From positions 3,155 to 67,154 of IMG/VR virus record IMGVR_UViG_3300046660_000239: DNA of 64,000 bases. One strand, 5' to 3'. How positions within the stretch are numbered: the first letter of the stretch is position 1; each line of letters starts with the position of its first letter. The position numbers and the translations under genes are program-made. This DNA comes from a virus. Under the pieces are notes generated by a model. The model searched no databases and was not told the origin of the DNA. It was given only the letters and a program-made list of their open reading frames with translations. Shown in pieces: positions 543-63,273 of this stretch.

Positions 543-848
543 TTATTCGCCATGGGTATCGATCGCCTTGATGAACTTGTCGGTTCCCCAGACGCAGCCG
601 CTGAGAACCATGATTGCGATCGCGGCGACGAACAAGAACGGCGCGAAGATGAAGGATGCGACGGCCACGCCGGCGACGATGGCTGCGATTGCGGCGCGGC
701 GGAGGGTTGGCGCCTTGAACTGGGTTGGCGTTGTGGGCGCGATGGTGGCGTTGATGGGCACGTAGTCGAGCGGCGTGCCTGTGATTGGCGGGAGGATGGT
801 TGGTGTGTCGGCGGTTGGGCTGGGCGCTAGCCAGGGGGATTTGGTCAT
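543..848 (-). CDS. Hypothetical membrane protein
   Basis: ORF coupled to neighbours; long hydrophobic C-terminal segment. Confidence 0.6.
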   Translation of the reverse strand: MTKSPWLAPSPTADTPTILPPITGTPLDYVPINATIAPTTPTQFKAPTLRRAAIAAIVAGVAVASFIFAPFLFVAAIAIMVLSGCVWGTDKFIKAIDTHGE

Positions 849-1237
849 GCTGCGGCTCGTTGGTCGGTGAGGATATTCGACGACAAGCGCTTCATCGTTT
901 CGACGAGCGGGTTGACGAACTCGACTTCGACGCCGCTCTTGCGACCAAGCTCGATCACGTCGGAAAGAGCCGTCATGAACTCTTTCATGCGCGCCTCCTC
1001 GGCTGTCGGCAGGGCGGCGATCAGCGCAACGGCGTTGTCGATTAGCTCGGCCGTAGTTTTGCCTTTGACGTAGTGAAACTCATCCGCCCAGTTTGAGTTG
1101 GGCTTCGCCCATCGAAGCACGATATTTGAGGCTGCATTTGCCTCGATACGGTACTCGGCGCCAGGCATCCGCTTGCCCTTGGCAAGCATAGCTGCAGGCA
1201 AGTCATCGATTCTCTTTTGGATTTCCTTGGTATCCAT
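845..1237 (-). CDS. Hypothetical protein, paralog of 13555..13959
   Basis: ATG at 1237 behind AGAGGAGAC; shares RMKEFMTALSDVIELGR...FVNPLV with 13555..13959. Confidence 0.85.
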   Translation of the reverse strand: MDTKEIQKRIDDLPAAMLAKGKRMPGAEYRIEANAASNIVLRWAKPNSNWADEFHYVKGKTTAELIDNAVALIAALPTAEEARMKEFMTALSDVIELGRKSGVEVEFVNPLVETMKRLSSNILTDQRAAA

Positions 1238-1301
1238 AACGTCTCCTCTTAGCCGTGCGGTTGGTGGCCGCACGGCGTTGCTGTGGTGGCAGTTGGTGGT
1301 G

Positions 1302-1838
1302 TTAGGCGGCGCGGTGATATTCGCCGAAATTCTGTTCCGCCGCCGCAACGTATGCGGCATGAGCGTCTTCAGGCGTTTTGAACCGACCGAGATATTTCTG
1401 TTCTCCGTCAATCCATATTGACGAGACCCAGACGAAACTTCCGTCTCGGTTTTTCCTCCTCCTGGCGCCCTTCAATCCGCTCAAATTGTCGGATCGGTTC
1501 TTTCGGTTCATGTTGTTTTGGGAACGCGTTACATCGCGGAGGTTGAAAATTTTGTTGTTTGTTTCGTCGCCGTCGATGTGGTCGATATGGCCATCTGGCC
1601 ACCTACCATTGTGAAGCGCCCATACGATTCGGTGAACGGCCAGCTTTTCGCCCTTGATATGAACGGCGGCGTACTTCTTTGAGCCACCCCTAATCGCCGT
1701 TCCAGCAGCGCCTCCGATTTTTACTCGGCTCTGTGAAGAAGTCGGTTCCTTCCAAAACAATTCGCCCGTATCGCGATATCCAAGGCAGCGTTCTACGAGC
1801 TCGAACGTTGCGCGCTCCTCCGCAGGAGTGCCCATCAC
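1302..1838 (-). CDS. HNH homing endonuclease with AP2-like C-terminal domain
   Basis: HRIVW...IDHIDGDETNNKIFNLR (HNH_3 pattern); KYLGRFKTPEDAHAAY (AP2-like). Confidence 0.9.
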   Translation of the reverse strand: MMGTPAEERATFELVERCLGYRDTGELFWKEPTSSQSRVKIGGAAGTAIRGGSKKYAAVHIKGEKLAVHRIVWALHNGRWPDGHIDHIDGDETNNKIFNLRDVTRSQNNMNRKNRSDNLSGLKGARRRKNRDGSFVWVSSIWIDGEQKYLGRFKTPEDAHAAYVAAAEQNFGEYHRAA

Positions 1839-60646: not shown

Positions 60647-61482
60647 ATCAGCCTTCCTCGTCGTTTTGCATATTCAACTTGATCAAAATCAGACTTCTGC
60701 AAATTGCAGGTGCTGCAAAGGCACTGAAGATTACTCGGCCAGTTTGAGCCGCCTTTCGATATCGGCTCGATATGGTCGACGTGATAGGCCTTACGAATTG
60801 ACTTCCCGCATTCGGCGCACTTGTACTTCTGCCGATTCAATATATTGGCGATATCTTCAACCGTGTGACTGCCCTCAGCATCCCTGATTCGTGCTCGCCT
60901 ATTCCTGGCTTGGGTCGCAGCTACCTCCGGATTCTCCTTGGCATATCGCTTGCTCTTTTCGCGAAATTTCTCGGGGTTTTCAGCGTATTTTTCACGCCCC
61001 TTGGCGAGCTCGGCCTCAACGTATGCCGGGTCGCTCCTGATGACGCGCATCCGCTCTCTTGCCGCCTCGTTCAGCGTAGGATCTTCAGCGCGACGCATGC
61101 GCATATACTCGCGCGTGTATTCTCGCCTCTGATTGTCATTAGTGGCTATCCATTTCTGATTTTGAGCTTTCGATTTAGATGGATCAGCGTGATATCTGGC
61201 GCGCTGCTGTGCATTGCGCTCTTCGCGCCACTCTGGATCCAAATCGGCCCTTAACTTGTTTTGCTCATTTCTTTTGTCGGAGCTGCACTTCGTGCACGCT
61301 GCATTGCTTGCAAAACGGGTCGTGATGTGGCCGTTGCTGCATGGCTCTCCTGTGAAATATCGTTTAGAGCCAAGTGCCTTTGCCATCTTCTGGTTAGGCA
61401 GCCACGGACCATTCATGCGGCGCCGGTTGTCGTTTTCAGCCTTGTAAACCGGCTTTCCAAAGGCATTTAATTTTTCTGTCAA
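60643..61482 (-). CDS. HNH endonuclease
   Basis: YFTGEPCSNGH; CAECG...HVDHIEPISKGGSNWPSNLQCLC..CN..K. Confidence 0.9.
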   Translation of the reverse strand: MTEKLNAFGKPVYKAENDNRRRMNGPWLPNQKMAKALGSKRYFTGEPCSNGHITTRFASNAACTKCSSDKRNEQNKLRADLDPEWREERNAQQRARYHADPSKSKAQNQKWIATNDNQRREYTREYMRMRRAEDPTLNEAARERMRVIRSDPAYVEAELAKGREKYAENPEKFREKSKRYAKENPEVAATQARNRRARIRDAEGSHTVEDIANILNRQKYKCAECGKSIRKAYHVDHIEPISKGGSNWPSNLQCLCSTCNLQKSDFDQVEYAKRRGRLI

Positions 61483-61982
61483 GCCGCCCTCCTCTTCAAC
61501 AACCGCCCACGCTCCTCATTCTCGATCTGACACACGCGCTGTGGCGTGACGCCGATAGCGGCGCCGATTTCGGGAAGCGTGTCGCCCATGGCGCGGCGCA
61601 TAACCACGCCGCCTGCGCGTGTGTTCATCTTGCGCAGCGTCTGGCATAGTTCGACGTATTCTATTTGCGACGGCGCGACGCCTCGGCGGCCGGCGAGCAC
61701 ACCGTCGGAGTCCTGCACGAGCGCAACGCGAGCTTTCACGCCCTCCTTCTTGTTGCCGACTACCCCGCGCATCGACCAATACAGCCAGTTCCAGAACCCG
61801 CCATCTTCGCGGAAGCTCTGCCAGTTACGCAGGCAATAGATGATCGTGTCCGTTACGAGGTCGTGGCGCTCTTCGCTCGTGGTGGTGAACTTACCGGCAA
61901 GCTTGAGCAGGCCGGGGCGGTATTTCATCAGCTTGGCGTCAAAAGCGGGCGGCCGGCCTTCGACGTTGTGGTTGTTGTTCAT
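61479..61982 (-). CDS. ECF-type sigma-70-like protein
   Basis: L.KLA...HDLVTDT...F.NWL (region 2-like); GDTLPEIG..IGVTPQRVCQIE (region 4 HTH). Confidence 0.7.
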   Translation of the reverse strand: MNNNHNVEGRPPAFDAKLMKYRPGLLKLAGKFTTTSEERHDLVTDTIIYCLRNWQSFREDGGFWNWLYWSMRGVVGNKKEGVKARVALVQDSDGVLAGRRGVAPSQIEYVELCQTLRKMNTRAGGVVMRRAMGDTLPEIGAAIGVTPQRVCQIENEERGRLLKRRAA

Positions 61983-62779
61983 GCTGCTACTCCTCCAAAA
62001 AGGTCCGCCAATGGTGAGTTATCGTTGGCAGCAGCAACTTGCGTAGCCGCTGGCCGGTTGTCGTTGGCGGCGATGCGGGCCGAGGCGATGGCGAAATAGG
62101 CTTCGTCGCGCTCGATTCCGATGAAGTTGCGCCCCAACAGGCGGCAAGCAACGCCCGTCGTACCGCTGCCCATTGTGTTGTCGAGCACGGTTTCGCCCTC
62201 GTTGGTGTAGGTGCGAATGAGGTACTCCATGAGGGCGACTGGCTTTTGGGTGGGGTGGACATTCCCGTTATTGCCGTTGCTGAATCTCTGGACGCTGGAC
62301 GGGAATCGTGTTCCTGCGTTGGCGATTGGTACACGCTTAATGCCGTCTTCCGTCCCCACGCTGGCGTTCCTCGCGCCCGACGAACGGTTATCGTTGTACG
62401 CCGCACCTTCCTCCATTCGCGGGTTGTATGTTGGCTGCTTTCGGAAGAAGACGCACACGTCTTCGTGCTTCTTGAATGGTTGCTTGCGCGCCAAGGCAAA
62501 ATTCGACGCCATGGTCTTTTCCCAAACCCAGCAGTACCGGAAGTCCTTCAGATTGCTTCCGATCAGAGCTGTCGTGAACGGCTGGCTGGCCGTCAGCACG
62601 ATAGCAGCATTAGGCTTGCAAACCCGCCTGTACTCAGCCCACAACGGGGCGAACGGGATAACTGCGTCCCACTTGCAGGCAGTCGTGCCATAAGGCAGAT
62701 CGCATAGCACCATGTCCACGCTACCCGCAGGAATCGTAGGCAGGATCTCCAGGCAGTCACCATTGCGCAGATCGATCAT
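61979..62779 (-). CDS. N6/N4 DNA methyltransferase (beta class)
   Basis: LCDLPY...HPTQKPV...LDNTMGSGTTG. Confidence 0.92.
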   Translation of the reverse strand: MIDLRNGDCLEILPTIPAGSVDMVLCDLPYGTTACKWDAVIPFAPLWAEYRRVCKPNAAIVLTASQPFTTALIGSNLKDFRYCWVWEKTMASNFALARKQPFKKHEDVCVFFRKQPTYNPRMEEGAAYNDNRSSGARNASVGTEDGIKRVPIANAGTRFPSSVQRFSNGNNGNVHPTQKPVALMEYLIRTYTNEGETVLDNTMGSGTTGVACRLLGRNFIGIERDEAYFAIASARIAANDNRPAATQVAAANDNSPLADLFGGVAA

Positions 62780-63273
62780 GCTGCCACCTTCATGTGTCCG
62801 AGTTTGTCGTTAAGTCGGCCACGCGCCAACTCGCGGCGCTGGCGCATGGCTTCACGGGAGATGCCGCGTTCGCGCCCCATGTCCGTGAGCGTATCGCCCA
62901 TAGCCTCGCGAAGAACGACGTTGCCGTCAGGTATGGTGGATAGGGCGGCAATCACCGCAGCGAGGTCAGCAGCACCCTCCTGGGCCGGCTGCACACCAAT
63001 GGTGGCCGCCATGGGAACACAGACGCCGGCGCGCTTCGCCTGGCGAGACGCGCGGATGAAGTTGCTTGCCGATCGCCGCAGGATAATCTGCGCCCATGTG
63101 CGGAACGTATCCATGCGGCATCTGTCGGCCAGGTGGAGCATGTCGGTCAGTGCGTCCTGCAGCAGCTCTTCGCCACGCAGGCCTGCCATGTAGAGGGCTT
63201 GCCGCCGAAGGTTGGGCAGATAGGCTATGAGGGCGGCGTCGAATTCTGACGCGCGCGGAGGTGCGGTGGTCAT
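62776..63273 (-). CDS. ECF-type sigma-70-like protein, paralog of 61479..61982
   Basis: YLPNLRRQA...EELLQD...FRTW; GDTLTDMG..RGISREAMRQ. Confidence 0.7.
   Translation of the reverse strand: MTTAPPRASEFDAALIAYLPNLRRQALYMAGLRGEELLQDALTDMLHLADRCRMDTFRTWAQIILRRSASNFIRASRQAKRAGVCVPMAATIGVQPAQEGAADLAAVIAALSTIPDGNVVLREAMGDTLTDMGRERGISREAMRQRRELARGRLNDKLGHMKVAA

Follow-up and report, generated by a model that had tools for sequence, protein, structure and literature searches.

In alphaproteobacteria, the peptide tag that transfer-messenger RNA (tmRNA; ssrA) adds to proteins by trans-translation is read, through its adaptor-binding part, by SspB-alpha, and SspB is dimeric. The N-terminal fragment of RseA of Escherichia coli is an SspB cargo other than ssrA, with a sequence unlike the tag, and CtrA carries a C-terminal Ala-Ala (AA). 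Viruses of eukaryotes mimic short linear motifs, which are quickly gained and lost in disordered regions and plug into the machinery of the host; to our knowledge, and by our literature searches, no mimicry of the tmRNA tag across the proteome of a bacteriophage has been described. Here we analyse a 64,000-nucleotide stretch of phage DNA (hereafter the window), which comprises bases 3155-67154 of the 67,154-bp IMG/VR virus record IMGVR_UViG_3300046660_000239, classified there as complete with direct terminal repeats. Its proteins repeatedly contain the tetrapeptide ANDN, the head of the host tag, and many of them end in AA. On balance we favour the view that ANDN is a peptide motif under selection in loose tails and linkers, which likely ties the lifetime of its bearers to SspB and ClpXP. 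Like RseA, the bearers would be non-tmRNA substrates that use the SspB peptide groove to reach ClpXP; unlike RseA, they copy the tag's own head.

Two kinds of built-in signal are already known: individual phage proteins such as MuA and lambda O carry recognition signals for ClpX, and ssrA tags have been engineered onto proteins. It is SspB that tethers tagged proteins to ClpX, and natural ClpX substrates with ssrA-like C-termini or other signals, phage MuA and lambda O among them, fall into the classes of Flynn 2003, according to a later review (PMC8138137). The window shares with these substrates the principle of phage or regulatory proteins with built-in terminal ClpX signals. The known cases are single proteins with individual signals, none of which copies the SspB-binding head or forms a proteome-wide pattern. 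In a Caulobacter depletion construct, the protein carrying the hard-coded tag AANDNFAEEFAVAA was so unstable that deletion of sspB became necessary; a template-encoded AANDN...AA thus leads to fast proteolysis, slower without sspB, and the principle works in an alphaproteobacterium (PMC9393093). The tags of the experimenters were exact native copies, whereas the phage tails are natural, divergent and present in many proteins. No paper on phage-encoded ANDN motifs was found in searches of the open literature, and the genome paper of Sinorhizobium phage AP-16-3 makes no mention of ANDN, tmRNA, ssrA, ClpX, degradation or motif.

Counts refer to 101 crude gene calls (20,675 residues) over the whole genome, made with our own open reading frame (ORF) and codon-usage caller; applied to phage 16-3, this caller gave 16 ANDN and 19 AA ends, against 17 and 19 in the 109 coding sequences (CDS) of the GenBank annotation. 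A six-frame scan of the window identified 17 ANDN copies, 2 on the plus and 15 on the minus strand, in the same 15 ORFs that the first-pass annotation had named; ORFs 58889-60646 and 61979-62779 have two each. One more copy, in the 3,154 bases preceding the window, brings the genome total to 18 in 16 proteins. Composition predicts 0.22 copies (Poisson, 2e-28), in line with the earlier estimate of well under one by chance, and ANDN ranks first among the tetrapeptides of the proteome, followed by GGGG and AAND with 10 each; chance or composition was rejected as the source on these grounds. The motif is sharp: AND followed by a residue other than N occurs three times, A.DN solely as ANDN, and NDN preceded by a residue other than A seven times. 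The near-variants AENDN, AANDI, AANDD and AANNNDND, reported earlier, were all found in the proteome. The copies in the window are as follows:

2293..2304, minus strand: ORF 2125-2517, 130 residues, no family, ends VAA
5872..5883, plus strand: ORF 5689-5898, 69 residues; site 4 residues from the C-terminus
6116..6127, plus strand: xis-like ORF 6098-6433 (weak HTH_17 match); site at residue 7
11584..11595, minus strand: ORF 11176-11796, ends VAA; residues 68-71, dATP/dGTP diphosphohydrolase domain at 90-189
13251..13262, minus strand: ORF 12522-13382 (deoxynucleoside monophosphate phosphatase/HD); residues 41-44, PHROG match at 102-283
14433..14444, minus strand: SbcD-like DNA repair exonuclease 14409-15665; residues 408-411, PHROG match at 5-400
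33626..33637, minus strand: tape measure 31187-33775; residues 47-50, TMP_2 at 62-153; the virion block holds just one other site
41117..41128, minus strand: portal 41087-42361; residues 412-415, portal domain at 53-379
46544..46555, minus strand: ORF 45722-46750 (phrog_36072, unknown function); residues 66-69
47609..47620, minus strand: AP2-domain protein, ORF 47573-48460; residues 281-284, 11 from the C-terminus, AP2 at 218-266
49709..49720, minus strand: Prim-Pol/DUF3987 primase 49658-52033; site in a lineage-specific C-terminal extension
54562..54573, minus strand: N6/N4 methylase 54520-55956, tail PANDNSPVGDLFAQAGAA; residues 462-465, PF01555 domain at 74-436
57716..57727, minus strand: exonuclease 57035-57802; residues 26-29, gained in this phage alone
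58934..58945, minus strand: SF2 helicase 58889-60646, second site, in the C-terminal tail; ANDN in 50 of 60 unique orthologues
58958..58969, minus strand: SF2 helicase 58889-60646, first site, in the C-terminal tail; among the 60 unique orthologues ANDN in 26 and DNDN in 25
62018..62029, minus strand: N6/N4 methylase 61979-62779, second site, tail AANDNSPLADLFGGVAA; residues 251-254, docked in the SspB model described below
62057..62068, minus strand: N6/N4 methylase 61979-62779, first site; residues 238-241, PF01555 methylase domain at 21-232

The 18 copies are spelled with 13 different 12-mers, and 30 of the 32 possible spellings occur across the clade defined below. AAYGAYAAY is found 28 times, 25 times in frame 0 of a gene, once in frame 2 and twice in antisense or intergenic positions, and all 17 window copies are encoded in the frame of their own gene; the earlier claim that selection acts on the peptide rather than on a DNA site is borne out by these counts. 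Because the copies are encoded in the gene frame, they were also rejected as products of trans-translation. The motif extends beyond four residues: the preceding position is A in 8 and P in 7 of the 18 sites, and Pro stands at +2 in 9 of them (0.9 expected) and in 103 of 293 clade contexts, so that the wider consensus is [A/P]-A-N-D-N-x-P.

All 17 window sites lie within 75 residues of a terminus, 10 of them within 25 residues of the C-terminus, and 203 of the 293 unique ANDN contexts of the clade fall in the last fifth of the protein. Where Pfam or PHROG matches exist, the sites are outside them, with the exception of exonuclease 57035, whose match has the site at its N-terminal edge; for three bearer ORFs no family was matched. 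The two proteins with tandem pairs (58889-60646 and 61979-62779) space them 8 and 13 residues apart. Six of the 16 ANDN proteins end in AA (an exonuclease, the portal, two methylases and two others). Four of these, at 14409, 41087, 54520 and 61979, join head and AA end in a complete tail with 7-13 residues after ANDN, and they are the four tag-like tails noticed earlier; the other two have the motif far upstream of the C-terminus. The tail of exonuclease 14409-15665, AANDNEPLRAAA, is a full tag look-alike. In the portal tail, PANDNKQNDGTQAA, 13 residues separate ANDN from the end, the same number as in native tags, and the portal of phage 16-3 ends PTANDNQEDEAEAA. The portal, Prim-Pol primase and phosphoesterase (SbcD-like exonuclease) labels of the first-pass annotation agree with domain and PHROG matches.

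Orthologues show how individual sites vary. ANDN is present in 36 of 36 orthologues of ORF 2125-2517, at two alignment columns, and the tail of methylase 54520-55956 is conserved across its family. The Xis of phage 16-3 carries ANDN at residue 5. ORF 45722-46750 has, in addition to its site, a degenerate AANDD near the C-terminus, and its orthologues (cluster 31) show ANDN at both columns. The private C-terminal extension of the primase (window 49658-49720) reads VPANDNKRGRPTRRYVWLELGA; most orthologous primases (cluster 7) end ...FVRAA or ...FVRAM, and one Ferrovibrio prophage has a similar extension with no ANDN. In exonuclease 57035 a three-residue insertion into a loose but conserved part of the N-terminal region created the motif, ...QPPANDNSAFE... 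here standing against ...NPPT---SAYE... in 26 other unique orthologues.

The distribution of the motif was followed among phages and prophages with related helicases. By protein search, the closest named relative is Rhizobium phage RHph_TM3_3_14B (helicase 93% identical; host Rhizobium etli), and the helicases of Sinorhizobium phage AP-16-3 (59%) and the classic phage 16-3 (43%) are more remote; DNA comparison of window 40000-50000 with named phages gave a single match, an HNH gene. Related prophages reside in Agrobacterium, Ensifer, Neorhizobium, Rhizobium, Ochrobactrum/Brucella, Falsochrobactrum, Aureimonas and Ferrovibrio. Close relatives (79 loci from IMG/VR and genomes, helicases at least 56% identical, 1,723 crude genes) contain 449 ANDN against 3.1 expected and 448 AA ends against 19.8 expected, counts that come from related sequences and are not independent. 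Distant relatives (17 loci, helicases 32-46% identical, partly from Planctomycetes-Verrucomicrobia-Chlamydiae bacteria) have no ANDN in 212 genes and 6 AA ends; they show no analogous motif, helicase motifs and PAPA runs being their most frequent tetrapeptides. Over 320 kb of the A. pusense chromosome (G001:C10:1-320000, L103-L118), no ANDN occurs in 93,601 residues. Counts for named phages are:

Phage 16-3, GenBank's 109 CDS: 17 ANDN in 16 proteins; 19 AA ends
RHph_TM3_3_14B, first 50 kb: 18 ANDN; AA ends in 18 of 65
Pseudomonas phage Baskent_P4_1: 0 ANDN; AA ends in 0 of 52
E. coli phage 9g, first 50 kb: 0 ANDN; AA ends in 1 of 63
Brucella phage Tb, lytic: 0 ANDN; AA ends in 1 of 49
Rhizobium phage RHph_Y3_1, other early genes: 2 ANDN, both PANDNxPA; AA ends in 7 of 52; a weaker case

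The excess over host DNA that had been anticipated is thus present in the relatives, and the pattern belongs to a group of temperate Rhizobiales phages, the 16-3 clade. That the motif is common to phages with related helicases, or to phages whose hosts have ANDN tags, is ruled out by the zeros in Baskent_P4_1, 9g and Tb; Baskent_P4_1 and 9g (first 50 kb) also have no ANDE or ANDD. RHph_Y3_1 (L129) is a temperate phage with another replication module, whose PANDNxPA sites lie in linkers (10867-12933 and 13416-14732), and given this phage the ANDN habit may extend beyond the 16-3 group.

Clustering of 1,824 clade proteins gave 477 clusters, 54 of which contain ANDN, as do 19 of the 65 clusters with at least 5 members. 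In these 19 families ANDN occupies 36 distinct alignment columns, and its presence at a column ranges from 1 of 27 to all members. The commonest alternatives are DNDN, SNDN, VNDN and TNDN; since these keep NDN, the core of the motif is N-D-N, preferentially preceded by Ala. Gains that recur at non-homologous positions, together with free synonymous variation, are the signature of selection on a short linear motif.

The tmRNA tags of five hosts of related prophages were predicted with ARAGORN, which found one alpha-type tmRNA in each: ANDNNAKEYALAA, ANDNYAEARLAA, ANDNKAQGYALAA, ANDNNAKGYALAA and ANDNRVALAA. All five begin with ANDN and end with LAA, so the phage motif is the invariant head of the tag, which confirms the likeness to the tmRNA tag perceived in the first reading. 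SspB (PF04386) is encoded in all five hosts. In four of them sspB and the tmRNA gene are no more than a few hundred bases apart, and in the fifth about 2.4 kb (loci L098-L102, L119-L123). The phage genome has no PF04386 match at E <= 1, and ARAGORN found no tmRNA gene in the 64-kb window; a phage tmRNA or a phage SspB was on these grounds rejected as source or reader of the motif.

The phage copies agree with the native alphaproteobacterial tag in the ANDN head, often with Ala before it, as the tmRNA's own Ala precedes the tag. Further points of agreement are the terminal Ala-Ala-COOH of six bearers, the 13-residue spacing in the portal, the unstructured tail and, in the model presented next, docking on SspB. 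The differences are that the phage motif is gene-encoded and not added by trans-translation, that Pro in place of Ala is usual at +2, that the middle of the tail is unrelated and the antepenultimate residue is V, R, G or another but not L, and that most phage copies lack an AA end or are N-terminal or in linkers, with orthologues often reading DNDN, SNDN or VNDN.

Solved SspB structures are available for Agrobacterium (2nys) and Caulobacter (2qas and 2qaz), and 2qaz presumably holds an ssrA peptide. A complex was modelled from two copies of A. pusense SspB (residues 1-125) and residues 222-266 of methylase 61979-62779; this SspB comes from the host of a prophage with a helicase 78% identical and may not be that of the host of the phage. 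The model scored 0.64, against 0.02 for the best of three controls. In the calibration 58 of the 80 solved complexes scored this high, as did 2 of the 110 mismatched pairs, which is an approximate guide only, as our own alignment was used and the job was unlike the calibration. Model runs share at least 47% of contacts, with a partner predicted local distance difference test (pLDDT) value of at least 47. The confident interface comprises partner residues 248-258, and the contacts with the least predicted error are on A250-A251-N252-D253-N254, so that the model places this tail on SspB through the motif itself.

If such docking is real, the following mechanism may be proposed. ANDN would copy the invariant head of the host tmRNA tag, and its likeliest reader would be the host adaptor SspB-alpha, which is taken to tether ssrA-tagged proteins to ClpXP. 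A protein with both ANDN and Ala-Ala-COOH would be a genetically encoded look-alike of the whole tag and would undergo fast, SspB-enhanced degradation. With ANDN alone, a protein would be tethered to SspB and ClpX and would then depend on weaker degrons or on remodelling; for sites without an AA end or at N-termini, occupation of the adaptor or remodelling would fit equally. As a result, the nucleases, methylases, sigma-like factors, Xis and replication enzymes of this temperate phage would be short-lived. Enrichment, selection at the peptide level, identity with the host tag, clade restriction and recurrent gain are direct observations; binding to SspB, for which there is a model, degradation by ClpXP and the biological purpose assumed here are inferences.

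The second component of the tag, the AA end, is found in 22 of the 101 genes (1.4 expected), 20 of them within the window, in agreement with the earlier figure of about 20. Only the final two residues are rich in Ala (0.34 and 0.35; positions -3 to -10 are at about 0.11). In an unbiased screen of C-terminal pentapeptides in E. coli, functional degrons were about 7-fold enriched in Ala at the last two positions, to about 40% at each (PMC10862746), and the 34-35% of the phage is close to this value. The three methylases (PF01555 at 54520 and 61979; PF00145 at 52908) and the two sigma-like proteins (61479 and 62776) all end in AA, as had been stated. A junction was classed as coupled when the stop codon overlaps a start that opens a frame of at least 40 codons, with a Shine-Dalgarno (SD)-like purine run 5-7 nucleotides (nt) upstream. 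The AA ends in the window are listed below, with the reading of their junctions:

845..853, minus strand: ORF 845-1411; RAAA, ATGA overlap, weak SD
1302..1310, minus strand: HNH endonuclease 1302-1838; TAA, uncoupled
1835..1843, minus strand: ORF 1835-2128; GAAGGAG-CAGC-GTGA
2125..2133, minus strand: ORF 2125-2517, also ANDN; AGGTGG-CGGC-ATGA
5395..5403, plus strand: ORF 5185-5403; GGGAGG-GCTGC-ATGA
11176..11184, minus strand: ORF 11176-11796, also ANDN; AAGGTGG-CGGC-GTGA, no 40-codon frame from the GTG and hence not classed as overlap
12002..12010, minus strand: ORF 12002-12361; AGGAGG-GCAGC-ATGA, RRAA
13379..13387, minus strand: ORF 13379-13558; GAGGAGG-CCGC-GTGA
13555..13563, minus strand: ORF 13555-13959; GGGTGG-CGGC-ATGA
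14409..14417, minus strand: exonuclease 14409-15665, also ANDN; RAAA, ATGA overlap
21596..21604, minus strand: ORF 21596-21910, virion block; TAA, then ATG 1 nt downstream
41087..41095, minus strand: portal 41087-42361, also ANDN; ATGA overlap with the prohead protease gene
47345..47353, minus strand: ORF 47345-47521; LAA, TAA, no overlap
52030..52038, minus strand: HNH endonuclease 52030-52551; AGGAGC-GCAGC-ATGA
52908..52916, minus strand: C5 methylase 52908-54146; SAA, TTGA that opens no downstream frame
54520..54528, minus strand: methylase 54520-55956, also ANDN; TAATG, 1-nt overlap
58332..58340, minus strand: 5'-3' deoxyribonucleotidase 58332-58805; LAA, TAA, uncoupled
61479..61487, minus strand: sigma-like ORF 61479-61982; AGGAGG-GCGGC-TTGA, RRAA
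61979..61987, minus strand: methylase 61979-62779, also ANDN; GGAG-TAGCAGC-ATGA
62776..62784, minus strand: sigma-like ORF 62776-63273; AAGGTGG-CAGC-ATGA, KVAA

Thirteen of the 22 AA ends are at 4-nt overlaps and two at 1-nt overlaps, and seven fall outside the coupled class. Stop/start overlap, which had been mentioned as a minor caveat for some AA ends, therefore concerns 15 of the 22. The ends at 1302, 47345, 52908 and 58332 do lack an overlapping downstream start, as reported before; after the stop of ORF 47345 an SD and ATG follow about 12 nt downstream, past the Ala codons. In typical coupled junctions, AGGAGG-GCAGC-ATGA (RRAA) and AAGGTGG-CAGC-ATGA (KVAA), the Ala codons are thus the spacer between the SD of the next gene and its start. 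Ala is kept at ATGA, GTGA and TTGA overlaps alike (GCA-TGA, GCG-TGA, GCT-TGA). The crude genes of the host have AA ends in 18 of 284 cases (3.7 expected), with Ala at 0.18 at each of the last two positions. At the level of families, AA ends are in the majority in 6 of 12 ANDN-majority families and in 7 of 53 others (Fisher p = 0.0099). We lean towards the interpretation that the AA ends are selected as ClpX signals. Runs rich in CACC/CCAC, e.g., TAAcaccaccaactgccaccac, occur just downstream of uncoupled AA-TAA stops (about 1275-1301 and 58305-58331, and just upstream of the window start).

The methylase tails share a composite structure, which consists of [A/P]ANDN, 2-9 residues, (Q)ADLF and G-x-AA, e.g., ...VAPVQADLFGVAA and ...SPLADLFGGVAA. 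The loci concerned are:

54520-54573 of the window: composite tail of methylase 54520-55956
61979-62029 of the window: composite tail of methylase 61979-62779
G000:C1:994-1353, outside the window: further locus of this observation

Such tails are present in four methylase families (25, 29, 114 and 133), where they read ...QADLFGVAA, ...PLADLFGGVAA and ...PVGDLFAQAGAA. The consensus for binding to the beta clamp is QL[SD]LF or QxxLF. The phage encodes a DnaN sliding clamp of its own (PF02768, E = 5e-29), and ...QADLF... resembles the clamp-binding motif; phage DNA methylases may ride the clamp. The tail of C5 methylase 52908-54146 (minus strand), AAANNNDNDGVRDEKRNEKSAA, is degenerate; it resembles a decayed or variant ANDN tail in which the AA end was retained.

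By gene content the genome is that of a temperate, siphovirus-type phage. A long early block on the minus strand contains replication, recombination, nucleotide-metabolism, methylase, sigma-like and HNH genes, as identified by Pfam and PHROG matches. Other features of the window are:

6292-7449: integrase; an xis-like gene is also present
about 15.6-44.7 kb: virion and lysis block (tape measure, portal, S78 prohead protease, terminase)
18107-18820, minus strand: trypsin-like peptidase (PF13365, E = 8e-21) with a hydrophobic N-terminal signal/anchor segment

The virion and lysis block accounts for 2 ANDN and 2 AA ends in 39 genes, and the remainder of the genome for 16 and 20 in 62. Because of its hydrophobic N-terminus the peptidase is probably exported; phages 16-3 and RHph_TM3_3_14B have annotated homologues. 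Given the signal/anchor segment, it was judged an unlikely processing enzyme for ANDN.

Several of these results weigh against a tie of ANDN and AA to SspB and ClpXP. Ten of the 16 ANDN proteins have no AA end, and 7 of the 17 window sites, being N-terminal or in linkers, cannot belong to a whole tag, so that complete degrons are excluded at most sites. Within the genome the association of ANDN with AA ends (6 of 16, against 16 of 85) is not significant (p = 0.11). The AA excess is concentrated at SD-GCNGC-ATGA overlaps, and among uncoupled ends (5 of 44, against 11 of 196 in the host, p = 0.18) this genome has no significant excess; the host itself ends about 6% of its proteins in AA, which makes it unlikely that AA by itself is a strong degron in that host. 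Where the phage has Pro, at +2, Ala is found in the four longer host tags, and this difference, with the variable middle, the varied antepenultimate residue and the 6% AA ends of the host, is reason for caution. As to the model, the partner pLDDT is only about 48, and the pass may stem from likeness to the solved structures 2qaz and 2nys; since a like complex is already solved, it shows likeness, not binding by this copy. The clade figures, lastly, carry the dependence of related sequences. The earlier proposal that the phage hard-codes SspB docking sites and degrons is partly supported, by the identity with host tags, the presence of SspB in the hosts and its absence from the phage, the loose placement of the sites, their gains within the clade, the docking score and the link of ANDN with AA in families. 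It is weakened by AA ends largely at overlaps, uncoupled ends not significantly above the host, 6 AA-ended proteins among 16 bearers and the 7 N-terminal or linker sites.

The AA ends, taken separately, might be mainly a by-product of translational coupling, as the cassette SD (GGAGG/GGTGG) + GCNGC + ATGA reads R/V/G-A-A in the upstream gene. The 15 overlapping ends favour this account, as does the comparison of 13 of 40 AA at 4-nt overlaps with 5 of 44 at uncoupled ends, the latter not above the host level; coupling itself, however, needs no GCNGC, and AA is found in only 3 of 49 host overlaps (p = 0.0018) and 4 of 43 overlaps of distant relatives. Moreover, Ala persists with each of the overlapping start codons, families with ANDN tend to end in AA as well, AA is rare in virion genes (2 of 39) though these are also coupled, and uncoupled ends of the clade have AA in 193 of 950 cases against 11 of 196 in the host (p = 1e-7, on related and non-independent sequences). 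The AA ends may in part be a by-product of coupling; as their main source, coupling is possible but less likely than selection. For ANDN, a DNA or RNA site GCN AAY GAY AAY, be it a binding site or a copied recombination cassette, can hardly be the explanation: 15 of the 17 copies are on one strand and GCC (0.49 vs 0.29) and GAC (0.78 vs 0.58) are somewhat over-used at the sites, but nearly all genes are on that strand, the copies keep to the gene frame in many spellings, and there is no sequence common to their flanks.

Two further explanations accept a peptide motif. ANDN-x-P might be a dock or cleavage site for a phage hub or protease, or for a host factor other than SspB, with a coincidental or historical likeness to the tag. 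This would account for the Pro at +2, which native tags do not have, and for the many sites at domain boundaries, where a processing protease would cut; a trypsin-like peptidase is encoded by this phage, 16-3 and RHph_TM3_3_14B, and SspB binding rests on a model. That peptidase, however, is probably exported and so out of reach of cytoplasmic replication enzymes, and RHph_Y3_1 has two PANDNxPA sites with no such peptidase annotated. An accidental match to the head of all host tags examined, exact over four to five residues, is also unlikely, one tetrapeptide being one in 160,000, and only the last two positions are enriched in Ala, as in the tag. We consider a different reader improbable. The ANDN tails might instead act mainly by mass action, occupying SspB and ClpXP during induction or infection, with turnover of the bearers secondary; other ClpXP substrates would then be stabilised or tmRNA-based quality control blunted. 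The number of copies (18 over 16 proteins), the tandem pairs 8 and 13 residues apart for a dimeric adaptor, and the 10 bearers without AA end, with many sites internal or N-terminal, speak for such a role, and the docking model fits it equally well. On the other hand, ANDN goes with AA ends at the family level (p = 0.01), as expected of complete degrons, the bearers are enzymes and regulators suited to a short life (Xis, nucleases, methylases), and one abundant protein would be cheaper than 36 separately maintained sites. This role, too, appears unlikely as the main one, and control of protein lifetime through SspB and ClpXP is the reading we retain.

A more far-reaching scheme is speculative, and we would not expect it to hold in full. 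In the 16-3 group of phages, about 36 independently maintained [A/P]ANDNxP sites might form a proteome-wide motif network with SspB as the hub of the early proteins. Through such a network the timing of the breakdown of nucleases, methylases, sigma-like factors and Xis would be set, and by mass action tmRNA-tagged proteins would be cleared more slowly during induction. The methylase tail would be a three-part switch (SspB dock, beta-clamp motif ...QADLF... and ClpX AA) in which the clamp-riding enzyme is shielded and the free enzyme destroyed.

The idea is directly testable, as the pattern recurs in the classic phage 16-3 of Sinorhizobium meliloti, host genetics are available and the structure of Agrobacterium SspB (2nys) is solved. 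If the tails bind SspB, they would be a natural case of a virus that writes the bacterial "destroy-me" tag into its own genes, and if the reading is true, they would parallel, in bacteria, the mimicry of short motifs by viruses of eukaryotes. The reading would also provide dozens of natural variants for mapping what SspB-alpha and ClpX accept in alphaproteobacteria, and would explain how the dangerous early enzymes of a temperate phage can be kept short-lived with no need for phage-encoded regulators.

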